From: Candidatus Dormiibacterota bacterium
GTDB taxonomy: Bacteria > Chloroflexota > Dormibacteria > Aeolococcales > Aeolococcaceae
DNA length: 64,000 bases
Reading direction: 5' to 3'
Assembly: GCA_963777445.1 (NCBI GenBank)
Contig: CAVZQR010000008.1
Coordinates: forward strand, 4,626-68,625
Part shown: positions 4,687-64,000 of the stretch, piece after piece
Layout: each line of letters starts with the position of its first letter
Numbering within the stretch: the stretch's first letter is position 1
Position numbers and translations under genes: made by a program
Notes under the pieces: generated by a model
What the model was told of the DNA's origin: nothing
Databases searched by the model: none
What the model saw: the letters and a program-made list of their open reading frames with translations, nothing else

Positions 4687-5556
4687 GTGAGTGCCCAGGC
4701 GGCTCTGATCCGCGCCGCCCCGGGGCCGCAGCATTGTACCCGGCCGGTCCTCCCACACACCAAGGCCTATGCTGAAACAGTGCCGAAAGCCACCGGTCTG
4801 ACCGCGATTGTGACCGTCGGCGACGAGATCCTGAGCGGGCATACGCAGGACACCAACTCGAGCCTCCTGGCGCGCCTTGCGTTCGCTGCAGGCCATCCGG
4901 TCGCGCGTATCGAGGTGGTCGGCGACCAGCCGGCGGCGATCGTCGCGGCGATCCGGAGGGCGATCGACGACCCGGGCATCACGAGGATCGCCGTCTGCGG
5001 CGGCATCGGGCCGACGCCCGACGACCGGACGTTCCAAGCCGTCGCCGACGCGCTCGGGCGGCCGCTCGAGCTCAACCCGATCGCCTACGCGAACATCGAA
5101 GCCCTGGCGCGGCGCATGCACGCGGCCGGATGGATCGACAGGCCCGTGGTATCGGAGGCCAACCGGCGCTGCGCGATGGTGCCCGTCGGTTCGACGGTGC
5201 TGATCAACCGGCGAGGAATGGCGCCCCCGCTGGCGATCGACATCGGCGACGACCGCTGGCTCTTCGTGCTCCCAGGCGTCCCCCGGGAGTTTGTGACCAT
5301 CGTCGAGGAAGAGCTCATCCCCGGATACTTCGCCGGCGGAACGGCCCCGATCGTGCGCGAGGTGCACTACCGCTCGGTCCCGGAGTCCGAGATGTCTCAG
5401 CCCATGCTCGTGCTCGAGCAGGAATTCCCCGACGTGACAGTCGGTTCGTATCCGCACGTGGAGCAGCGCGACCTCGTCATCCGGCTTCGCGGGCGCGAGG
5501 CCGACCGAGTTGACGCCGCCGTCGCACGGCTGCGCTCGCTACGCAGCGACAGCTAG
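4687..5556 (+). CDS. CinA-like competence/damage-inducible protein (MoCF-biosynthesis-type domain)
   Basis: The segment TAIVTVGDEILSGHTQDTNS...GGIGPTPDD is typical of the CinA N-terminal domain. The true start is probably a downstream GTG near 4780. Confidence 0.65.
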   Translation: MSAQAALIRAAPGPQHCTRPVLPHTKAYAETVPKATGLTAIVTVGDEILSGHTQDTNSSLLARLAFAAGHPVARIEVVGDQPAAIVAAIRRAIDDPGITRIAVCGGIGPTPDDRTFQAVADALGRPLELNPIAYANIEALARRMHAAGWIDRPVVSEANRRCAMVPVGSTVLINRRGMAPPLAIDIGDDRWLFVLPGVPREFVTIVEEELIPGYFAGGTAPIVREVHYRSVPESEMSQPMLVLEQEFPDVTVGSYPHVEQRDLVIRLRGREADRVDAAVARLRSLRSDS

Positions 5557-5586
5557 GAGCGAACGGAGCGGGTTACCCCGCTACGA

Positions 5587-5787
5587 TCAGACCTTCTGGA
5601 GGTTGCGCGCGCGCGGGCCCTTGGGCGAGTCGACGATGTCGAACGTCACCTGCTCGCCTTCCTGGAGGGCGTCGAAGTCGACGGTGGTCAGCTCGGTGCG
5701 ATGAAAGAACACCTCGTTGCCATCGTCTGCACGGACGAATCCAAATCCACGGTCGGGAATAATCTTCTTGATTCTTCCAGCGGTCAC
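5587..5787 (-). CDS. csp: cold-shock protein (CspA family)
   Basis: The 66-aa reading VTAGRIKKIIPDRGFGFVRADDGNEVFFH...QKV has the RNP1 (GFGF) and RNP2 (VFFH) motifs. A GTG start is preceded by GGAGGA at 6-nt spacing. The longer 184-aa ORF in the track is an upstream extension artefact. Confidence 0.85.
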   Translation of the reverse strand: MTAGRIKKIIPDRGFGFVRADDGNEVFFHRTELTTVDFDALQEGEQVTFDIVDSPKGPRARNLQKV

Positions 5788-5929: not shown

Positions 5930-7096
5930 TCACCGCAGCATAGCAGGGTATTCGCTTGAGCCGCGTTCCCAGGCCGCACGGAGTTCGTGCAGGCTTTCGG
6001 GAAGATTCGCGTAATAGTCGTCCACATCGATCCGCTCGGGCCACGGGCTGGGGACCGAACGTTCGCGCTCATGACGCGCCACCTCCACCCAGGCACTCCC
6101 GAACGCCGTCTCAGCTCCCGATGAGTCGACGACACCCGCATCGCGCAGGTGCTGCTGACGGTCGAACGGCGGCACCTCGGCGGCGCGTGGTCCGGGGTTG
6201 CTCCACATCGCCGCCATCAGCCCCGCACACCCGCAATCGATCAGCGCGTCGACAGCCCCGGCGACAAACCGCCGGGTGCGCGCGTCGCGCTCGCTCTCCG
6301 ACTCGTCGTCATCGGTTGCAGCGGGCGCGCTCGGCTGCAGATGCGCAACCATCGGCGCCGAACCGCTGAGCAACTCGAAGAGCTGTGCCAGAAACGTCGC
6401 CGCCGCCGGTTCGCGCTCGCCGCCAACCTGCGCGAGCGAACTGCCCGTGACGTCGAGACCGAGAATGTCGACCAGGCTCGCCACAGCAGCCGGACGCACA
6501 GCCCGCGCAATCACGACGTCATCGGTGCTCAGTGACAGCATGCAGCGTTGCTCACGCTCATGAATCCGTTCACTGATCAGCGCCACCCAGGTCCGCAGGT
6601 GTTCGATTCGCAGCGGTCGCACACCGCCGGCGGGATCATGTCCGATATCCCACATCGCAACCGCGGGGTGTCCGGCGAAGGCTCCGAGCATCTCGTCGAC
6701 CCAGCGGACGCACACCTCGACCATCAGCTGGTCCGTGTAGACGTAGCGCGACCCGCCGGGCTGCGTCACGGCGTCGGACACGGCGCGCACACCACTGCGG
6801 CGCGCGCCGACATCGATCGCGTACGACGGGAGCATCACGCACCCGCCGATCGTCTGCACGAACAGCACGGGAACCACCTGCAATGAGAGTTCGGTGGCGA
6901 CCCTCAGGAAATGCTCGAGATTGCGCAGACGCGCCGGCTCCACACGCGCGGGCGTCGGCATGAATGCGTCCCAGAGCAGGTGCGTGCGCACGGTGTGATG
7001 GCCGGCCGCCTTGATGGCGCGCAACTCTCCTTCGGTGCGTGCGGCGTCGTATTCGTGCCACACGTACGGCCCAACCTCGCGCGACCAGTACGTCAC
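5930..7096 (-). CDS. glycoside hydrolase-like TIM-barrel protein (GH5-like)
   Basis: The segment GELRAIKAAGHHTVRTHLLWDAFMP and the overall length fit a GH5-type hydrolase. The start was trimmed to the first in-frame GTG that does not overlap the upstream SDR gene, so the start is uncertain. Confidence 0.55.
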   Translation of the reverse strand: MTYWSREVGPYVWHEYDAARTEGELRAIKAAGHHTVRTHLLWDAFMPTPARVEPARLRNLEHFLRVATELSLQVVPVLFVQTIGGCVMLPSYAIDVGARRSGVRAVSDAVTQPGGSRYVYTDQLMVEVCVRWVDEMLGAFAGHPAVAMWDIGHDPAGGVRPLRIEHLRTWVALISERIHEREQRCMLSLSTDDVVIARAVRPAAVASLVDILGLDVTGSSLAQVGGEREPAAATFLAQLFELLSGSAPMVAHLQPSAPAATDDDESESERDARTRRFVAGAVDALIDCGCAGLMAAMWSNPGPRAAEVPPFDRQQHLRDAGVVDSSGAETAFGSAWVEVARHERERSVPSPWPERIDVDDYYANLPESLHELRAAWERGSSEYPAMLR

Positions 7097-12780: not shown

Positions 12781-13605
12781 GTGCTTGTGCTGCTCGTCGC
12801 CCGGCCGGCTGAGGTTCCAGGAGCGCCCATGCTCCGCAACCTCGCAGCCATCCAGATCAACGCGGTTGTCGAGAATTCAGCAGCCGTGACCGCGCTGGCC
12901 GTGGAGCCGGTCAAGACCGTGGTCCTTCAGACCGGACAGACCCTTGCCACGCTCGCAACCGCCTACCACGTGTCGACTTCGACGATCGAGTGGGGAAACC
13001 AACTCACCCCCTATGAGGTCCCGGACCCAGGATCGACCATCCTCATTCCCCCGGGACCCGGGGCGCTCGTGCAGGTGCTGCCGGGTGAGACCCCGACCGC
13101 CTTCGCGGCACGGGTCCACCTCGACCCCGCGGTGATCCTGGACTACAACGCGCTGACCACCAATGCACCGAGGACTGCAGGTTCGTACCTCCAGGTTCCC
13201 CTCTCTCGGGCACCCGCGGGCGCGCTCATCGCCTCGTTCTTCGTGGACGCCGACAACGGTGTTCCGTCAGTTCCCCCGCAGACCCCGCTGCACGACGGCT
13301 TCCCCTACGGGCAGTGCACGTACTACGTGGCAACCCAGCGCGCGGTCGACTGGAGCGGGAACGCCATCAACTGGTGGCGCGCCGCCCGCGGCAAGCGCCC
13401 CGAGGGACCGGTCCCGATCCAGGGGGCGATCGTGGTCTTCAACATCGGCTGGGTCGGGCACGTCGCCTACGTGGAACACGTGAACCTCGACGGCACCTTC
13501 GTCATCTCTGAGATGAACTACCACGCGGCCGGCGGAGGATGGGGGCGCATCGACTACCGCACCATTCTCGCCTCGGACACGTCGATCGTGGGTTTCATCT
13601 ACTGA
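12781..13605 (+). CDS. LysM- and CHAP-domain peptidoglycan hydrolase
   Basis: A LysM motif (VVLQTGQTLATLATAYHVSTSTIEWGNQL) is followed by a CHAP amidase domain (GFPYGQCTYYVA ... VGHVAYVEHV). Confidence 0.75.
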   Translation: MLVLLVARPAEVPGAPMLRNLAAIQINAVVENSAAVTALAVEPVKTVVLQTGQTLATLATAYHVSTSTIEWGNQLTPYEVPDPGSTILIPPGPGALVQVLPGETPTAFAARVHLDPAVILDYNALTTNAPRTAGSYLQVPLSRAPAGALIASFFVDADNGVPSVPPQTPLHDGFPYGQCTYYVATQRAVDWSGNAINWWRAARGKRPEGPVPIQGAIVVFNIGWVGHVAYVEHVNLDGTFVISEMNYHAAGGGWGRIDYRTILASDTSIVGFIY

Positions 13606-13630
13606 GGGCTTGGCGCCCGCGTTGTGGTTG

Positions 13631-13750
13631 GGCGGCAGGGGGGTGGGCGGCGCCTGGCTCAGCTTGTCCGCTCCCTCCTTCGCGCAAGCAGAGTGTCGCG
13701 CTCTCTCGGGAGCGGCCAAATTCGCTGGGCGCCGCCCACCCCCTGCCGCC
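13631..13750. repeat. MITE/REP-like element, copy A (120 nt; 23-24-bp G-rich terminal inverted repeats)
   Basis: The left arm ggcggcaggggggtgggcggcgcc is the reverse complement of the right arm ggcgccgcccaccccctgccgcc, apart from one base in a G6/C5 run. The internal sequence is the reverse complement of copy B at about 85% identity. The element lies between convergent genes. Confidence 0.75.
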
Positions 13751-13830
13751 TGACCCGTTGTGCCAATCCCTCCCGCTGAATCCTTCGCGGCGCCGGCTCT
13801 GCGACGCGACGGGGCAGTAGGTCGATCGAC

Positions 13831-14130
13831 TCAGAGTCCGTTGAGCAGGCCGCGCAGGGCGGTCGTGTAGGCATCGAGCGCTGCTCGGCCCCGCCCGGTC
13901 AGGCCGATCGAGGTGCGGGACGCTGTCCCGTTGCCGGTTTTGTCGGTGGTCAGGTAGCCGGCGTCCTCGAGCTTCCGGAGGTGAGTGATCAGGTTGCCCG
14001 GCGTCAGGTCGAGCATGTTCTGCAGGCGGGTGAAGGAGAGCGCGTCGCCGTCCGGCAGTGCGGCCAGCGTCGCGACAATCCGAAGGCGGGCCGGAGCGTG
14101 GATCAGCGGGTCCAGTTCGTCCGCCGTCAC
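13831..14130 (-). CDS. winged-helix transcriptional regulator (PadR/MarR-like)
   Basis: The reading from the GTG start is about 99 aa (VTADELDPLIHAPARLRIVATL...LTPGNLITHLRKLEDAGYL) and has a winged-HTH pattern. The GTG overlaps the stop of the upstream membrane-protein gene in a GTGA arrangement. Confidence 0.6.
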   Translation of the reverse strand: MTADELDPLIHAPARLRIVATLAALPDGDALSFTRLQNMLDLTPGNLITHLRKLEDAGYLTTDKTGNGTASRTSIGLTGRGRAALDAYTTALRGLLNGL

Positions 14131-14786
14131 GCGCGGTGCTGCCAGGCGGTGGCGGCGGCGTAGCCGACCACCCCGGCGAACAGCCCGATCCCGGCGACCA
14201 ACCACGCATCGATCGGCCCCACGAACGCGGCGACGACGCCGCCGGTGACGACCGCGAGCGCGGCGCCGAACTGAGGCCAGTCGGCCTTGGTCCCCGCGAT
14301 GCCCACGAGCGTCGTGCCGATGATGATCAGCGGCACCGCGGCCGGGATCACCCCATAGACGATCGCGGCGCTCGCGCCGTCGACCTTGAGCGCGCCCTGA
14401 ATCACGGGGCTCCCGGCGATTGACGCGAGAAGGGCAACCCCCTCGACGGTGCGCTGCCTCGAAGATGGTCCGCTGACGCCGGTGGTTGCCCGCCGATGGA
14501 GCGTCACGGCCACGGCGGTCGTGACGCCGACCGTCGCGTAGACGAGCGCGATCACGCCGAGGTTCGGCCCCGTGTAGGGGTCCTGCCCGCGCACCGAGAG
14601 CCACAGTGCCACGTAGGCGAGCAGGATCAGCCCCCCTAGCACCGCCGTCGGGAGCGGCGGGTTCAGAGCGAATTGACGCCGCGCCTTGCGGCTGGTCTGC
14701 TCCAGCAGCCGCGCGGCCTCGCGCGGATCGAGCGCACCGCCGTCATCGGCGATCGCGGCCTGTCCCAGATCACGGCTGTCGTTCAT
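14127..14786 (-). CDS. hypothetical polytopic membrane protein (first gene of the regulator operon)
   Basis: The ORF is 219 aa with several hydrophobic helices. A strong AGGAGG lies 8 nt upstream of the ATG at 14786. Confidence 0.55.
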   Translation of the reverse strand: MNDSRDLGQAAIADDGGALDPREAARLLEQTSRKARRQFALNPPLPTAVLGGLILLAYVALWLSVRGQDPYTGPNLGVIALVYATVGVTTAVAVTLHRRATTGVSGPSSRQRTVEGVALLASIAGSPVIQGALKVDGASAAIVYGVIPAAVPLIIIGTTLVGIAGTKADWPQFGAALAVVTGGVVAAFVGPIDAWLVAGIGLFAGVVGYAAATAWQHRA

Positions 14787-14806
14787 GCTCAGGGCCTCCT
14801 CGCTTG

Positions 14807-14846
14807 GCTTTGTCCCGCAAAGCTACATCGCTTTGCCCCGCAAAGT
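14807..14846. promoter_or_regulatory. tandem palindromic operator-like sites (GCTTTGTCCCGCAAAGC and GCTTTGCCCCGCAAAGT)
   Basis: Two 17-nt near-identical perfect palindromes (CTTTG-N5-CAAAG) lie 6 nt apart. They sit 20-60 nt upstream of the membrane-protein/regulator operon start at 14786. Confidence 0.5.
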
Positions 14847-15014
14847 CAAGCCCCCGGGTCCCAGCCTCGGCTGCCTGTGTCAAGACGCGTCGGAGACCGG
14901 GCCCTCCTACACTGTCACCGTTCCCCCTCGGATTCCGCGGGGTTCCACACTCGCCCCAGCCTCGTGTCGGCGAAGCCTCTGCCCTGCCGTAGAAGAATGG
15001 CGCAACGCGTGTCA

Positions 15015-15133
15015 GGCGACAGGGGACGGGCGGCACCCAGCGAATTTGGGAGCGACCGAGAGAGCGTGACAATAGGGTTGCGCGACCGAGGGAGCGGACA
15101 AGCTGAGCACGGTGCCGCCCGTCCCCTGTCGCC
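15015..15133. repeat. MITE/REP-like element, copy B (119 nt; perfect 23-bp terminal inverted repeats)
   Basis: The left arm ggcgacaggggacgggcggcacc is the exact reverse complement of the right arm ggtgccgcccgtcccctgtcgcc. The core is the reverse complement of copy A. The element lies just 3' of the response-regulator gene. Confidence 0.75.
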
Positions 15134-15158
15134 AAAACAGCGGAGTGGCTGCGAAGGC

Positions 15159-15857
15159 TCAGCCGGAGAAGCGGTACCCGATCCCCGGCACGGAGTGGAT
15201 GTACGTGGGCTTCTCCGCGTCCGGCTCGATCTTGCGGCGCAAGCGGTAGACGTGCGCGTCGACGGTCCGGGTCTCGATCTCGACCTCGTAGCCCCAGACG
15301 CGACGCAGCAGCTCTCCGCGACTCATGACCTGTCCGGGTCGTGACGCAAGCAGCGCGAGGAGGTTGAACTCCGTCAGGGTGAGCATCACTTCCTCACCGT
15401 CGCGGAACACCTGGCGGCGGCCGAGATCGATGGTGAGTCCGGGAAACTCGAAGCGGTCGCGCGGCTGCTCCTGTGCGGAGATCTCGCTGCGCCGCAGGTG
15501 CGCTCCGATGCGTGCCATGAGCTCGCGAACCTCGAACGGCTTGGTCACGTAATCGTCGGCGCCGAGCTCGAGGCCGACAACCACGTCAATCGTGTCGCTC
15601 TTCGCGGTCAGCATGATGATCGGCACGCGTGCGCCCTCGGCGCGGAGGCGCCGGCAGACATCGAGCCCGCTCATGCCGGGGAGATTGACGTCAAGGATGA
15701 TCAGGTCGGGGTTCTGCTCGCGGGCGAGGTTGAGTCCCTCGACGCCGGTTGCCGCCTCGATGAGCGTGTGATTCTGGGCACTCGTGGCCAGGCGGACGAT
15801 CTCGCAACTCGGTGGATCGTCCTCCACGATGAGAATGGTCTTTCCGGCCCCGCTCAT
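15159..15857 (-). CDS. OmpR-family two-component response regulator
   Basis: A REC domain (ILIVEDDP...DLIILDVNLPGMSG) is followed by a winged-helix output domain (LTLTEFNLLALLASRPGQVMSRGELL). Its ATG overlaps the stop of the upstream kinase gene. Confidence 0.9.
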   Translation of the reverse strand: MSGAGKTILIVEDDPPSCEIVRLATSAQNHTLIEAATGVEGLNLAREQNPDLIILDVNLPGMSGLDVCRRLRAEGARVPIIMLTAKSDTIDVVVGLELGADDYVTKPFEVRELMARIGAHLRRSEISAQEQPRDRFEFPGLTIDLGRRQVFRDGEEVMLTLTEFNLLALLASRPGQVMSRGELLRRVWGYEVEIETRTVDAHVYRLRRKIEPDAEKPTYIHSVPGIGYRFSG

Positions 15858-19382: not shown

Positions 19383-19937
19383 CTACGCCGGAATGCCCGG
19401 ATCGGGGCGACCCAGGGCGCCGGCCAGCGACCCGAGGTCGGTCTGGTCGGTCACCTCAACATGCCCCGCCTGGGGCTGCGTGGCCCTGAGCAGGTCGCTC
19501 AAATTGCTGTCGCTCCAGCGCGCATCGGCCACCGCGACGATCCCGTCGTGGTAGCGGTGCTCGCCGAGCCAGGCCTCCCACGACGGATCCCCGGTCACGT
19601 CCTCGGTCGCGCTCGATTCGTGCGCCATCGCGGCACCCTGGTTGGTGGCCGGACCGAACCCGAAGTTGCGCGGATTGCTCACGATGCAGGCACCGCTGAC
19701 CTGTGCTAGCTGATCAACTGTCCGGACGGTCGACGCGTTGTCGACGATCACGACCTCATAGCGCGGCGTAGTGACCGGGGCGAGCGGCATCACCAGGTCG
19801 AACCGATGCCCAAGCATGGCGACCATCGCCGGCCCAGCGACGTCGCACGACCTAGCGAAATTGGCCCATGCCGGGAACGACGCGACCGCCGCGACCAACC
19901 CGGCCATCGCGGCGGCGATGTCGTGGAGCCGACCCAT
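19383..19937 (-). CDS. glycosyltransferase family 2-like fragment (probable remnant or disrupted gene)
   Basis: The ORF has VVIVDNAS and NFGFGPATNQGA motifs but lacks the N-terminal TYN region and the C-terminal half. About 600 bp of ORF-poor, all-frame-fragmented sequence follow it. Confidence 0.3.
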   Translation of the reverse strand: MGRLHDIAAAMAGLVAAVASFPAWANFARSCDVAGPAMVAMLGHRFDLVMPLAPVTTPRYEVVIVDNASTVRTVDQLAQVSGACIVSNPRNFGFGPATNQGAAMAHESSATEDVTGDPSWEAWLGEHRYHDGIVAVADARWSDSNLSDLLRATQPQAGHVEVTDQTDLGSLAGALGRPDPGIPA

Positions 19938-49466: not shown

Positions 49467-49540
49467 GCCCCCTTAGCTCATCGGTAGAGCAGCCGGCTTT
49501 TAACCGGTTGAGGGAGGTTCGATTCCTCCAGGGGGCACCA
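49467..49540 (+). tRNA. tRNA-Lys (anticodon UUU)
   Basis: A cloverleaf can be folded by hand. The acceptor stem is GCCCCCU/AGGGGGC, the D stem is GCUC/GAGC, and the anticodon stem GCCGG/CCGGU carries the loop CUUUUAA. The T arm is GGAGG-UUCGAUU-CCUCC. The discriminator is A and the 3' CCA is encoded. Confidence 0.85.

Positions 49541-57729: not shown

Positions 57730-57733
<4 letters not shown>
56885..57733 (-). CDS. pyrK: dihydroorotate dehydrogenase electron-transfer subunit
   Basis: The ORF has an FAD/NAD-binding ferredoxin-reductase fold (RPFSV) and a C-terminal 2Fe-2S cysteine cluster (CGFGTCLGC). A GTG start overlaps the carB stop. Confidence 0.8.
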
Positions 57734-60981
<3,248 letters not shown>

Positions 60982-61090
60982 ACACTTCGGTTTTCCCGCC
61001 GAGAGATCCGGCGTTCCCGCGCTTTCAGTGGAGGCGGCGCCGGCATCGTGAGCGCGCTGGTGTCATCGACGAGTTCACTCGCGACTGCTA

Positions 61091-61222
61091 GGACGGGAGG
61101 GGGGGACACATCGCCGGCGAGTTCGCGTAGCGGTTCGACCGAGCGCGATGCTAAGTCGTTGCGCGAGGGCGAACCGCGGAGCGCTGTCTGAGCAAGGCGG
61201 TGGTGTCCCCCCCTCCCGTCCC
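61091..61222. repeat. MITE/REP-like element, copy C (132 nt; perfect 19-bp inverted repeat ggacgggagggggggacac / gtgtccccccctcccgtcc)
   Basis: The core resembles copy B (…gttgcgcga…gggagcgg…ctgagca…). The element lies between the carA 3' end and the carB start inside the pyr operon. Confidence 0.65.
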
Positions 61223-61229
61223 ACCACGC

Positions 61230-62364
61230 ACGACCGCAGGAACTCGTCAAAAACCCCGCGCGATCCTGAGGCCCGGGCGCCCCCTCAGGGTGGTACTGCA
61301 CCGAAAACGCCGGCAACTCACGATGTCGCAATCCTTCAACCTGACCCGTCGTTGAGGTTGCGCTCACTGACGTACCAGCCGGAGTCGTCCGGCAGCGACG
61401 AGGCGTCGACCTGGAACTCGTGGTTCTGTGACGTCACGTACACCGTGCCGAGCTCTGAGTCGCGCACCGGGTGGTTGCCGCCGTGGTGACCGAAGCCAAG
61501 CCGCGACGTGGACGCGCCGGCGGCCTGGCCCAGGATCTGGTGGCCGAGGCAGATGCCGAGCAGTGGAACACGTCGGTCGAGCAGGTCGCGGCACAGCTGG
61601 ACCGCATGCGGCAGCCGCGATGGATCACCTGGCCCGTTGGAGAGGACGATCCCGTGTGGATCGTGTCGGAGCACGTCCTCGATGCGCGCGTCCTGGCGCA
61701 CCAGGATCACCTCCGCCCCGCGACTGCACAGCGCGCGGAGCTGGTTCAGCTTGACGCCGTAGTCGAGCACCACGACCCTCACGCCGCTCCAGGCGTTCTC
61801 GCTGCCCGAGAGCACAACCCCGCGATGCAGGGTCGGGTCGAGGGGCTCCTTGAACGCGCGCCACGGCTCCTCGATCGAGACCATGCCGACCAGGTCCTCG
61901 TCGCTGACGAACGGCGCCGACCGGGCCGCCTCCACCTGCTCGTCCGGCGTCATCGCCGAGCACGCGGCGATGACGCCGCGGAGGGTGCCGTGATCACGAA
62001 GGTGGCGCGTCAGTGCGCGCGTGTCGACACCCCGGAGTCCCGGGATGCCGTTGCGCTGCAACTCGGCCTCGAGAGTGCGCTCCCCGCGTGCGTGGCCGAT
62101 GTCCGCCGAGAGCTCGCGCACAACCAGGGCGCGGCACTGCACCCGAGCGGATTCAGCGGTGTCGTCACGGCAGCCATAGTTGCCGATGAGCGGATAGGTC
62201 ATCACCACGATCTGGCCGGCGTAGGAGGGGTCGGTGATCACCTCCTGGTACCCGGTCATGCAGGTGTTGAAGACAACTTCGCCGTTGTGCACGTGTTCCA
62301 GCGGTGCGCCGAAGAGGATCCCCTCGTACGTCGCACCGGATTCGAGGGCGAGTCGCCCGCGCAC
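61230..62364 (-). pseudogene. carA: carbamoyl-phosphate synthase small subunit (glutamine amidotransferase), 3' end broken by two frame shifts
   Basis: The main frame (61336..62628) stops after NLNDGSG. Deleting one nt near 61350 restores [31 protein letters not shown] second shift at a G4/T5 run near 61250 is needed to read the conserved FDEFLRS tail. A GTG start at 62364 lies 1 nt after the pyrC stop. Confidence 0.75.
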
Positions 62365-62365
62365 G

Positions 62366-64000
<1,635 letters not shown>

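Follow-up and report, generated by a model that had tools for sequence, protein, structure and literature searches.

What are the two long palindromes that lie close to gene ends in a 64,000-nucleotide (nt) stretch of contig CAVZQR010000008.1 from an uncultured Candidatus Dormibacterota bacterium (hereafter, the window), and what keeps them palindromic? In this study, which was based on folding, covariance models and a comparison with related genomes and metagenome contigs, these two elements, copies A and B, and a more diverged copy C between carA and carB were found to belong to a small family of palindromic repeats, not described before, of the uncultured soil phylum Dormibacterota. Their conserved part is the loop rather than the arms, which change by paired substitutions, and the copy-C type lies in frame within a fused enzyme gene of related contigs.

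Members and anatomy of the family

In copy B, 23-bp arms pair perfectly around 73 nt, while those of copy A pair fully except for one extra G (a G6 run against a C5 run). Compared as reverse complements over 119 nt, A and B show 82% complementarity, and 86% column identity once aligned. These values are in good agreement with the first-pass annotation of the window, in which two elements of about 120 nt with arms of 23-24 bp and reverse-complementary cores of about 85% identity were described. An identical 21-mer is common to both copies, for which the chance expectation in the window is 0.01 matches. The annotation had also proposed a folding check, and each copy folds into a single long and very stable hairpin both as RNA and as DNA. 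Folded as RNA, the two copies had energies of -99.8 and -70.5 to -81.8 kcal/mol; compared with dinucleotide shuffles, none of 200 of which was equally stable, the RNA z-scores ranged from -6.8 to -10. The DNA z-scores were about -6.7 to -6.9. Copy C, which represents a diverged 140-nt subtype, was found first by an inverted-repeat scan of the window and scored 34.8 bits with the family model.

The proposal that A and B belong to a dispersed repeat family was borne out, with three copies in the window and at least about 75 in total, distributed over 19 Dormibacterota species known from metagenome-assembled genomes (MAGs) and over soil and peat metagenomes. A scan with an exact 18-mer of the core, which does not count diverged copies, of one genome per GTDB species yielded 66 loci, of which 33 came from the 19 MAG species, all with the full element. 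There were one to four such loci per MAG, and one in a complete 3.2-Mb chromosome. The matches outside Dormibacterota were unrelated coding sequence, mostly one recurrent conserved gene of Oscillospiraceae and Clostridiales, and none was continued by the rest of the core; among the matches, the family is restricted to Dormibacterota. A covariance model that was trained on 29 copies recognised 36 copies in the 18-mer loci and the window. Additionally, a degenerate pattern scan of metagenome contigs returned at least 120 stretches, and when these were searched with the covariance model, about 29 more copies of the A/B type, eight of the C type and a few intermediates were present among the matches listed. 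With its filters off, the model found A, B and C and no further copies in the 64 kb of the window; a candidate at position 19851 was a chance 14-mer match inside other sequence. Four pattern matches in viral contigs were not recognised by the model, and Rfam gave no family match to the elements at either gathering or permissive thresholds, only sub-threshold chance matches to plant miRNA precursors. The closest related loci were 85-90% identical to the window and none of the compared loci was identical to it, so that the window represents a further species within this clade. We found no paper on interspersed repeats in Dormibacterota in a full-text search that was limited to the terms "Dormibacter" and "palindromic".

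Four nested layers make up the unit, a DNA palindrome of about 165 nt. The outermost consists of recognisable and weakly complementary flanks, a 5' motif (..GCGCTGTGGTyt) that is present upstream of nearly all copies and a 3' motif (TTACA-CCCGTTGTGCC) that is often directly followed by GTAG; at some sites the flanks extend the palindrome imperfectly. Within them lies a pair of arms of 23-40 bp, the sequence of which varies freely, and between the arms there is a partly paired inner stem and an asymmetric, near-constant core of 73 nt. In one locus (L056; numbers with L denote related loci or contigs that were compared with the window), the 5' flank motif is doubled (GTGCTGTGGTCGGGC ... GCGCTGTGGTCGGGC) about 40 nt upstream of the element, which occupies 5475-5604. 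By their arms, 31 copies belong to class I (GGCGGCAGGGGACGGGCGGCACC-like), 15 to class II (CGGACAGGAGGTCACCCGGGCCG-like) and about eight, with longer arms, to class III, in addition to further types, and a single core is common to all of them. Across 57 aligned copies, the mean column identity was 88% for the core compared with 56-57% for the arms. The annotation had regarded the elements as REP-like or as miniature transposable elements of the inverted-repeat type (MITEs) that are defined by their terminal repeats, a description that does not fit arms that are the least conserved part and occur in at least three classes, or the low copy number. In the loci examined, no two copies of one genome had identical arms. 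The G-quadruplexes that had been suggested for the arms are not a family feature, since the G-runs are not kept in classes II and III; class I arms contain only two runs of at least three G, and the other two classes fewer. The inner stem covaries between subtypes, with CCGCTCCC/GGGAGCGG in copy A, GCGGTTCG/CGAACCGC in the C type, CAGCGCC/GGCGCTG in L133 and CCGGGcTCGC/GCGACCCGG in L034_5847 and L077, and is mostly unpaired in the "GGTCGCT" subtype, which includes copy B. The pieces GCTCAG, TCGCGCAA, TCGCGCTC and AAATTCGC of the core are invariant and mostly unpaired.

Upkeep of the arms and constraint on the core

Because bulges made gapless arm pairing unreliable, pairs were counted on the model alignment. 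Paired cells made up 94.8% of the outer stem, whereas shuffled alignments reached 75% and a slid partner left no more than 57% paired, and two-sided changes were found at 20 of 21 pairs (323 cells). Nearly all of the arm changes lead from one Watson-Crick pair to another, with almost no one-sided changes of the G-U kind; G-U pairs occupy about 1% of the cells and are rarer than A.C or C.T mismatches. The same was observed at the carA-carB site, where nine contigs had double changes at 16 pairs and no one-sided change in the outer stem around a near-invariant core. Separately, C.T mismatches recur at two fixed arm positions in the 57- and 9-copy alignments. RNA stems under selection normally evolve through G-U pairs. 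The Watson-Crick-only double changes and the scarcity of G-U therefore favour maintenance of the arms by copying at the DNA level over selection on RNA, and it seems that the arms are kept complementary by such a process, stepwise RNA selection being less likely. A suitable mechanism is template switching between inverted-repeat arms, by which arms are homogenised and the spacer is inverted (PMC8604942, PMC7202029).

The core behaves differently from the arms and from the neighbouring coding sequence. At the response-regulator site, third codon positions were 58-72% identical to the window and the core 81-93%; identity of the arms was 80-100% where they belonged to the same class and 54-63% where they belonged to the other. 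The copy-C type was seen only at the carA-carB site among the matches listed, and its core is near-invariant across nine contigs, the flanking genes of which share about 83-85% identity with the window. By inspection of the alignment, the few substitutions in this core show no preference for third codon positions, which argues that the nucleotides rather than a peptide are constrained. Peptide coding was rejected as the cause of core conservation on this ground and because the subtypes differ in frame: the A/B and C cores differ by +4 and +2 nt, which places the middle in another frame, and no conserved encoded peptide is common to them. That the core is better conserved than synonymous sites indicates that something reads it. 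Judging from these comparisons, the core would be under purifying selection at the nucleotide level and would be read by a putative trans-acting factor, either a protein or a nucleic acid.

Sites, rearrangements and the carA-carB linker

Clustering of the flanks produced about 20 context groups, in about 17 of which the element adjoins the 3' end of a gene at 10-65 nt from the stop codon. This aligns well with the 3'-end positions that had been assigned to A and B, each of which lies 20 nt after a stop codon, that of the LysM/CHAP gene and that of the response regulator, respectively, with A facing the winged-HTH gene. The upstream genes are functionally unrelated and encode, among others, a CHAP hydrolase, a response regulator, an aminotransferase, a DNA ligase, a Crp-type regulator and an IscA-type protein. 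In a crude count, 29 of 33 elements were in sense orientation; many sites lie between convergent genes, and after grouping about 8-9 unambiguous sites were sense and three antisense.

Both sites of the window are occupied in related contigs, the CHAP site in L028, L034, L057, L063, L076, L094, L122 and L178 as well as in L005, and the response-regulator site in L005, L006, L028, L034, L057, L061, L063, L077, L093, L115, L122, L131, L171 and L172. In L005 (L005_1242), the core alone is inverted relative to the flanks and the CHAP gene, the other copies at this site having the usual orientation, and at two further sites the whole element is present in opposite orientations (L018/48/49 compared with L025/69/158, and L036/56/164 compared with L132). 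The CHAP-side allele of L171 has no hairpin and reads GTGGTTTGG|CCCGTTGTGCC, so that exactly the arms, the core and TTACA are missing. Hairpin loss is the simplest reading, although the allele may instead represent the hairpin-free motif before insertion. A search of related genomes for copies and target-site duplications, which had been proposed in the first-pass annotation, thus delivered the former and not the latter: this one empty allele showed no duplication of at least 3 bp against the occupied alleles and a shared junction of at most 1-2 nt. Joined flank halves without a hairpin are rare (L171 and possibly L027), which suggests that the flanks normally travel with the hairpin. The possible second case lies at 6353-6374 (+) of L027, reads CAGTGGCGGAC|GCCGTTGTGCCGT and follows directly after a possible stop codon. 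At the CHAP site, TTGCTGAATCC and GGGGCAGTAGGTCGA on the 3' side of copy A (13776-13830) are kept, in the hairpin-less allele as well (L171, L057, L028, L122), and TTGCTGAATCC was also observed 3' of the element at an unrelated site (L017, L044, L045, L046, L062).

The interval between the CHAP and response-regulator sites is a hot spot for gene insertion, deletion and truncation. The two copies are 90-250 nt apart in L057, L034, L063 and L005, which lack the two extra genes that separate A from B at 13757-15008 of the window, i.e., the winged-HTH gene and a gene for a 219-amino-acid protein. Between the two sites, L077 contains 5 kb of ordinary genes, which encode an alpha/beta hydrolase and a DUF3500 protein and include unassigned reading frames. 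In L023, two half elements are separated by another reading frame, and the copy in L172 is truncated. No transposase was present in the sequence examined between or beside the copies, including the 5-kb insert of L077. The 219-amino-acid protein gene (14127-14786, minus strand) has no Pfam match. Just upstream of its start, at 14807-14845, there are two 16-nt palindromic direct repeats, GCTTTGTCCCGCAAAG and GCTTTGCCCCGCAAAG, 23 nt apart, which from their arrangement look like candidate operator sites for the adjacent winged-HTH regulator.

In all eight related contigs with enough flank, the copy-C element lies within a single carA-carB reading frame. This frame encodes 1565 amino acids in L098 (6196-10893, minus strand) and 1570 in L086 (2484-7196, minus strand), and in both the element falls in a linker of about 100 amino acids; the further fused contigs are L079, L080, L084, L107, L099 and L151. 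A protein search showed that public fragments such as P0001 and P0097 contain the element-encoded peptide and that CarA-CarB fusions without it exist, such as P0003. The contig of the latter (L191) is more distant, with 67-72% nucleotide identity to the window, and has a short linker and no element. Because this distant relative has the fusion without the element, the element was inserted into a pre-existing carA-carB linker. Between 60940 and 61560 (minus strand), the window differs from five related contigs by four 1-nt indels, all within 450 nt and two of them at G-runs, which give premature carA stops as read in the window. These indels are probably assembly errors, which would imply a noticeable indel error rate in the window, and in view of them the single unpaired G of copy A may be an assembly error as well.

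The annotation had suggested that such elements can act as bidirectional terminators, which is not supported by their structure or by this position. The stems are followed by TTACA or TGA and not by the T-run of an intrinsic terminator, and a promoter and terminator scan of 13300-15400 around A and B detected neither promoter-like nor terminator-like sites. As judged from the reading frame, the copy-C element would have to be transcribed and translated through and would not be an efficient terminator there, and this read-through makes it less likely that the family functions by terminating transcription efficiently or by being cleaved obligatorily by RNase III. The coordinates of the three copies and their neighbouring genes are given in Table 1. 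Elsewhere in the window, a tRNA gene at 49467-49537 (+) was the sole Rfam match at the gathering threshold.

Table 1. Copies A, B and C of the palindromic repeat, their parts and the adjoining genes in the window.
Feature	Position	Strand	Basis or remark
Copy A, hairpin of ~130 nt	13626-13756	+	
Copy A, 5' flank motif GTTGTGGTTG	13621..13630	+	family consensus ..GCGCTGTGGTyt
Copy A, 5' arm, class I, G-rich	13631..13654	+	pairing, folding, alignment
Copy A, 73-nt conserved core GCTCAGCTTGTCCGCTCCCTC..TCGCGCAA..TCGCGCTCTCTCGGGAGCGGCCAAATTCGCTG	13655..13727	+	core column identity, 57 copies
Copy A, inner stem of core CCGCTCCC/GGGAGCGG	within 13655..13727	+	covaries between subtypes
Copy A, 3' arm	13728..13750	+	pairing, folding
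Copy A, 3' linker TGA, then flank motif CCCGTTGTGCC	13751..13764	+	linker TTACA in most copies
Copy B, hairpin of ~130 nt	15009-15138	-	
Copy B, 3' flank motif TGACACGCGTTGCGC	15000..15014	-	minus-strand reading
Copy B, 3' arm (element orientation)	15015..15037	-	100% complementary to 5' arm
Copy B, core, "GGTCGCT" subtype	15038..15110	-	inner stem mostly unpaired
Copy B, 5' arm (element orientation)	15111..15133	-	pairs with 15015..15037
Copy B, 5' flank GCCACTCCGCTGTTTT	15134..15149	-	minus-strand reading
Copy C, diverged 140-nt subtype	61086..61225	-	between carA and carB; inverted-repeat scan, then covariance model
Copy C, arms	~61089-61109 and 61203-61223	-	
Copy C, core			retains GCTCAG, TCGCGCAA and TCGCGCTC; inner stem GCGGTTCG/CGAACCGC
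LysM/CHAP gene	12781..13605	+	stop codon 20 nt before copy A; Pfam
Winged-HTH gene	13831-14163	-	convergent with copy A side; Pfam
OmpR-type response regulator	15159..15857	-	stop codon 20 nt before copy B; Pfam
carB	57730..60981	-	in related contigs, fused in frame to carA via the copy-C element
carA	61336..62628	-	as read in the window; frameshift near 3' end

Kinship with known repeats and possible explanations

The elements can be placed among bacterial interspersed palindromic repeats in general and belong to no named family, even though each of their features has a precedent elsewhere. Their behaviour is closest to ERIC, and that of copy C to RPE. ERIC (enterobacterial repetitive intergenic consensus, or IRU) elements are imperfect palindromes of about 127 bp that occur in transcribed intergenic regions and at the 3' ends of genes and can alter mRNA decay (PMC10969869). 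They are similar to the Dormibacterota element in being imperfect palindromes of low to moderate copy number at gene 3' ends, and differ from it in their unrelated host phylum, the two being compared here by description and not by sequence. ERIC elements of different genera are well conserved in their central part. In the Dormibacterota element the arms are, in comparison with ERIC, long, nearly perfect and class-specific, and the core is far more conserved than the arms. RPE, the palindromic elements of Rickettsia, measure about 150 bp and can be located in frame within protein genes, to which they add a peptide segment (PMC10969869). An in-frame insertion of this kind was found for the copy-C type only, at the one site in the carA-carB linker; while RPE are reported with a conserved peptide, conservation here is at the nucleotide level and the frame differs by subtype.

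REPINs, which are REP doublets linked to RAYT transposases, are built of hairpin units with recognisable ends and a compensating paired spacer, give asymmetric excision products and reside with their hosts for long periods (PMC3116915). The Dormibacterota element likewise has ends that can be recognised, a paired spacer that changes in a compensating manner and an asymmetric deletion product. However, REPINs combine invariant end 16-mers with a middle of the lowest conservation, opposite to our observation, and they occur in hundreds per genome compared with a few here, where no RAYT was present in the sequence examined. Accordingly, the invariant ends and the tens to hundreds of copies per genome that characterise REP and REPIN elements are both missing, with conservation reversed and one to four loci per MAG. 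The Correia (NEMIS) elements of Neisseria measure 100-160 bp, have long inverted repeats and are co-transcribed as long RNA hairpins (PMC10969869). The size, the long inverted repeats and the long RNA hairpin are common to them and to our family. Correia elements possess conserved 26-bp terminal repeats and a TA duplication, and the Dormibacterota element has neither. As for MITEs in general, the elements are short, non-coding and dispersed (130-165 nt, about 20 distinct sites), but their terminal repeats are not conserved and the one empty allele gave no target-site duplication. Quasipalindrome template-switch mutagenesis matches both the Watson-Crick-only covariation and the core flip of L005_1242; it accounts for the upkeep of the arms and not for the origin, the dispersal or the conserved core.

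Two other kinds of site were considered and rejected by inspection. Integron attC sites carry R''/R' core sites (RYYYAAC / GTTRRRY) and extrahelical bases and form tandem cassettes beside an integrase. In the family, the GTTGTGC of the 3' flank does not conform to GTTRRRY, the 5' flank lacks an AAC motif, conserved bulges are missing from the nearly perfect arms and the copies are dispersed and often convergent. A sigma-54-like motif on the reverse strand of the flank (TGGCAC-N5-GTGT) lacks the -12 GC, and the class II flanks do not have the motif.

We tentatively favour, with somewhat less than even confidence, an interspersed palindromic repeat that is old, low in copy number and specific to one lineage, a subclade of Candidatus Dormibacterota, with DNA-copied arms, a core that is read by a putative factor and a 3' hairpin that is read through. 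The unit would have dispersed to at least about 20 sites, mostly 10-65 nt after stop codons and one in the carA-carB linker. Since then it would have been inherited mostly vertically, with occasional inversion of the whole element or of its core, loss of the hairpin and exchange between copies. Template switching within the palindrome would homogenise the arms and could invert the spacer, and a putative trans-acting factor would read the core. The element would usually be transcribed with the upstream gene and would form a very stable 3' hairpin on that mRNA, which would be read through instead of terminating transcription and may slow decay from the 3' end.

Several points weigh against this explanation. 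Depending on the species, the response-regulator site has class I or class II arms and differing core subtypes, which implies that copies have been replaced or exchanged and that "orthologous" copies need not share descent. Such exchange weakens the case for selection in place, with the exception of the copy-C type. On the usual sense strand, A.C and C.A mismatches exceed G.U by about 2-3 to 1 in the alignments of 57 and nine copies (23 distinct events compared with 10), which is the opposite of what is expected for a selected sense-strand RNA hairpin; this excess fits none of the considered explanations well. The sense bias is not strict (about 8-9 sites compared with three) and gives weak support to a strand-specific RNA role. 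Moreover, the factor that reads the core is putative, and co-transcription and the effects on mRNA are deduced from position and folding.

The elements could instead be selfish, non-autonomous and mobile in the manner of MITEs or REPINs, moved in trans by a putative transposase, for example of the HUH/RAYT type acting on a folded single strand, in which case core and flanks would be conserved for recognition by the enzyme and not for a need of the host. Such mobility would explain why arms of one class are present at many unrelated sites, why one site holds different arm classes in different species and why GTAG follows the 3' flank at many sites. The recognisable ends and the less conserved paired spacer with compensatory changes resemble REPINs, and the asymmetric boundaries of the hairpin-less L171 allele resemble their asymmetric excision products (PMC3116915). 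We nevertheless consider this origin unlikely. The absence of identical arms within one genome in the loci examined gives no sign of recent bursts, the copy number is very low (one to four exact-core loci per MAG), the arms are not conserved, and neither a target-site duplication at the one empty allele nor, in the sequence examined between and beside the copies, a transposase was found. The near-invariant copy-C core in nine contigs, with no evident donor copy among the matches listed, is also difficult to reconcile with it. A related proposal is that a hairpin cassette consisting of the arms, the core and TTACA is inserted and excised at GTGGTTTGG^CCCGTTGTGCC on folded single-stranded DNA by a putative enzyme that reads the loop. 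We regard this as rather improbable; if true, the cassette would be a site-specific miniature element of a new kind, with a drifting stem and the specificity residing in the loop, and given the constraint on the core inside the carA-carB linker the host could have domesticated it.

If the element acted mainly as RNA, in cis and within the upstream gene's 3' untranslated region, it could terminate transcription without a U-tract, block 3' exonucleases or be processed by RNase III, with the core as the putative binding site of an RNA-binding protein. Such a role would be in line with the positions 13-65 nt after stop codons, mostly in sense, with the extreme stability of the RNA hairpin and with the strong covariation of the stem. 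Precedents are the Correia elements, which are cleaved by RNase III, and ERIC at 3' ends (PMC10969869). This possibility appears distinctly unlikely to us, as G-U pairs are very rare and one-sided changes nearly absent, unlike in selected RNA stems, some sites are exclusively antisense or hold the element in either orientation, the stem is not followed by a T-run, and termination or RNase III cleavage of the transcribed and translated copy-C type would be harmful in carA-carB. The nucleotide-level constraint regardless of context, i.e., in untranslated and intergenic regions, in a coding linker and in either orientation, would be in keeping with a site in double-stranded or cruciform DNA that is bound by a host protein of chromosome organisation, recombination or replication and whose arms would extrude and present the core. 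The Watson-Crick-only covariation, the low copy number with conserved sites and the hot spot of insertion and truncation between two inverted copies in the CHAP/response-regulator interval point in the same direction. However, this role does not predict the sense bias and the near-absence from promoter regions, the core is asymmetric, there is no protein candidate, and the extrusion of a cruciform from 130 bp would require the energy of supercoiling, which together make it quite improbable. A small RNA gene antisense to the upstream gene, with the long stem serving for processing or stability, would be consistent with the excess of A.C over G.U on the sense strand, which means that more wobble is tolerated on the antisense strand. 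This statistic is small and counts events that are not entirely independent, the scan around A and B showed no promoter-like site, Rfam gave no match, and the in-frame carA-carB copy and the orientation flips fit poorly, so we give this idea hardly any weight.

In practical terms, the elements can serve as a marker of assembly and gene-calling problems, which they cause through G-runs, frameshifts and mis-joins, and they flag intervals in which genes are gained or lost between species. The family also offers a compact natural example in which one can distinguish the upkeep of a palindrome at the DNA level from nucleotide-level selection on its core and from the in-frame entry of a repeat into an essential fused enzyme's linker. 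If a dedicated protein reads the core, the family would provide a handle on a new DNA- or RNA-binding system in a phylum that has no cultured members.

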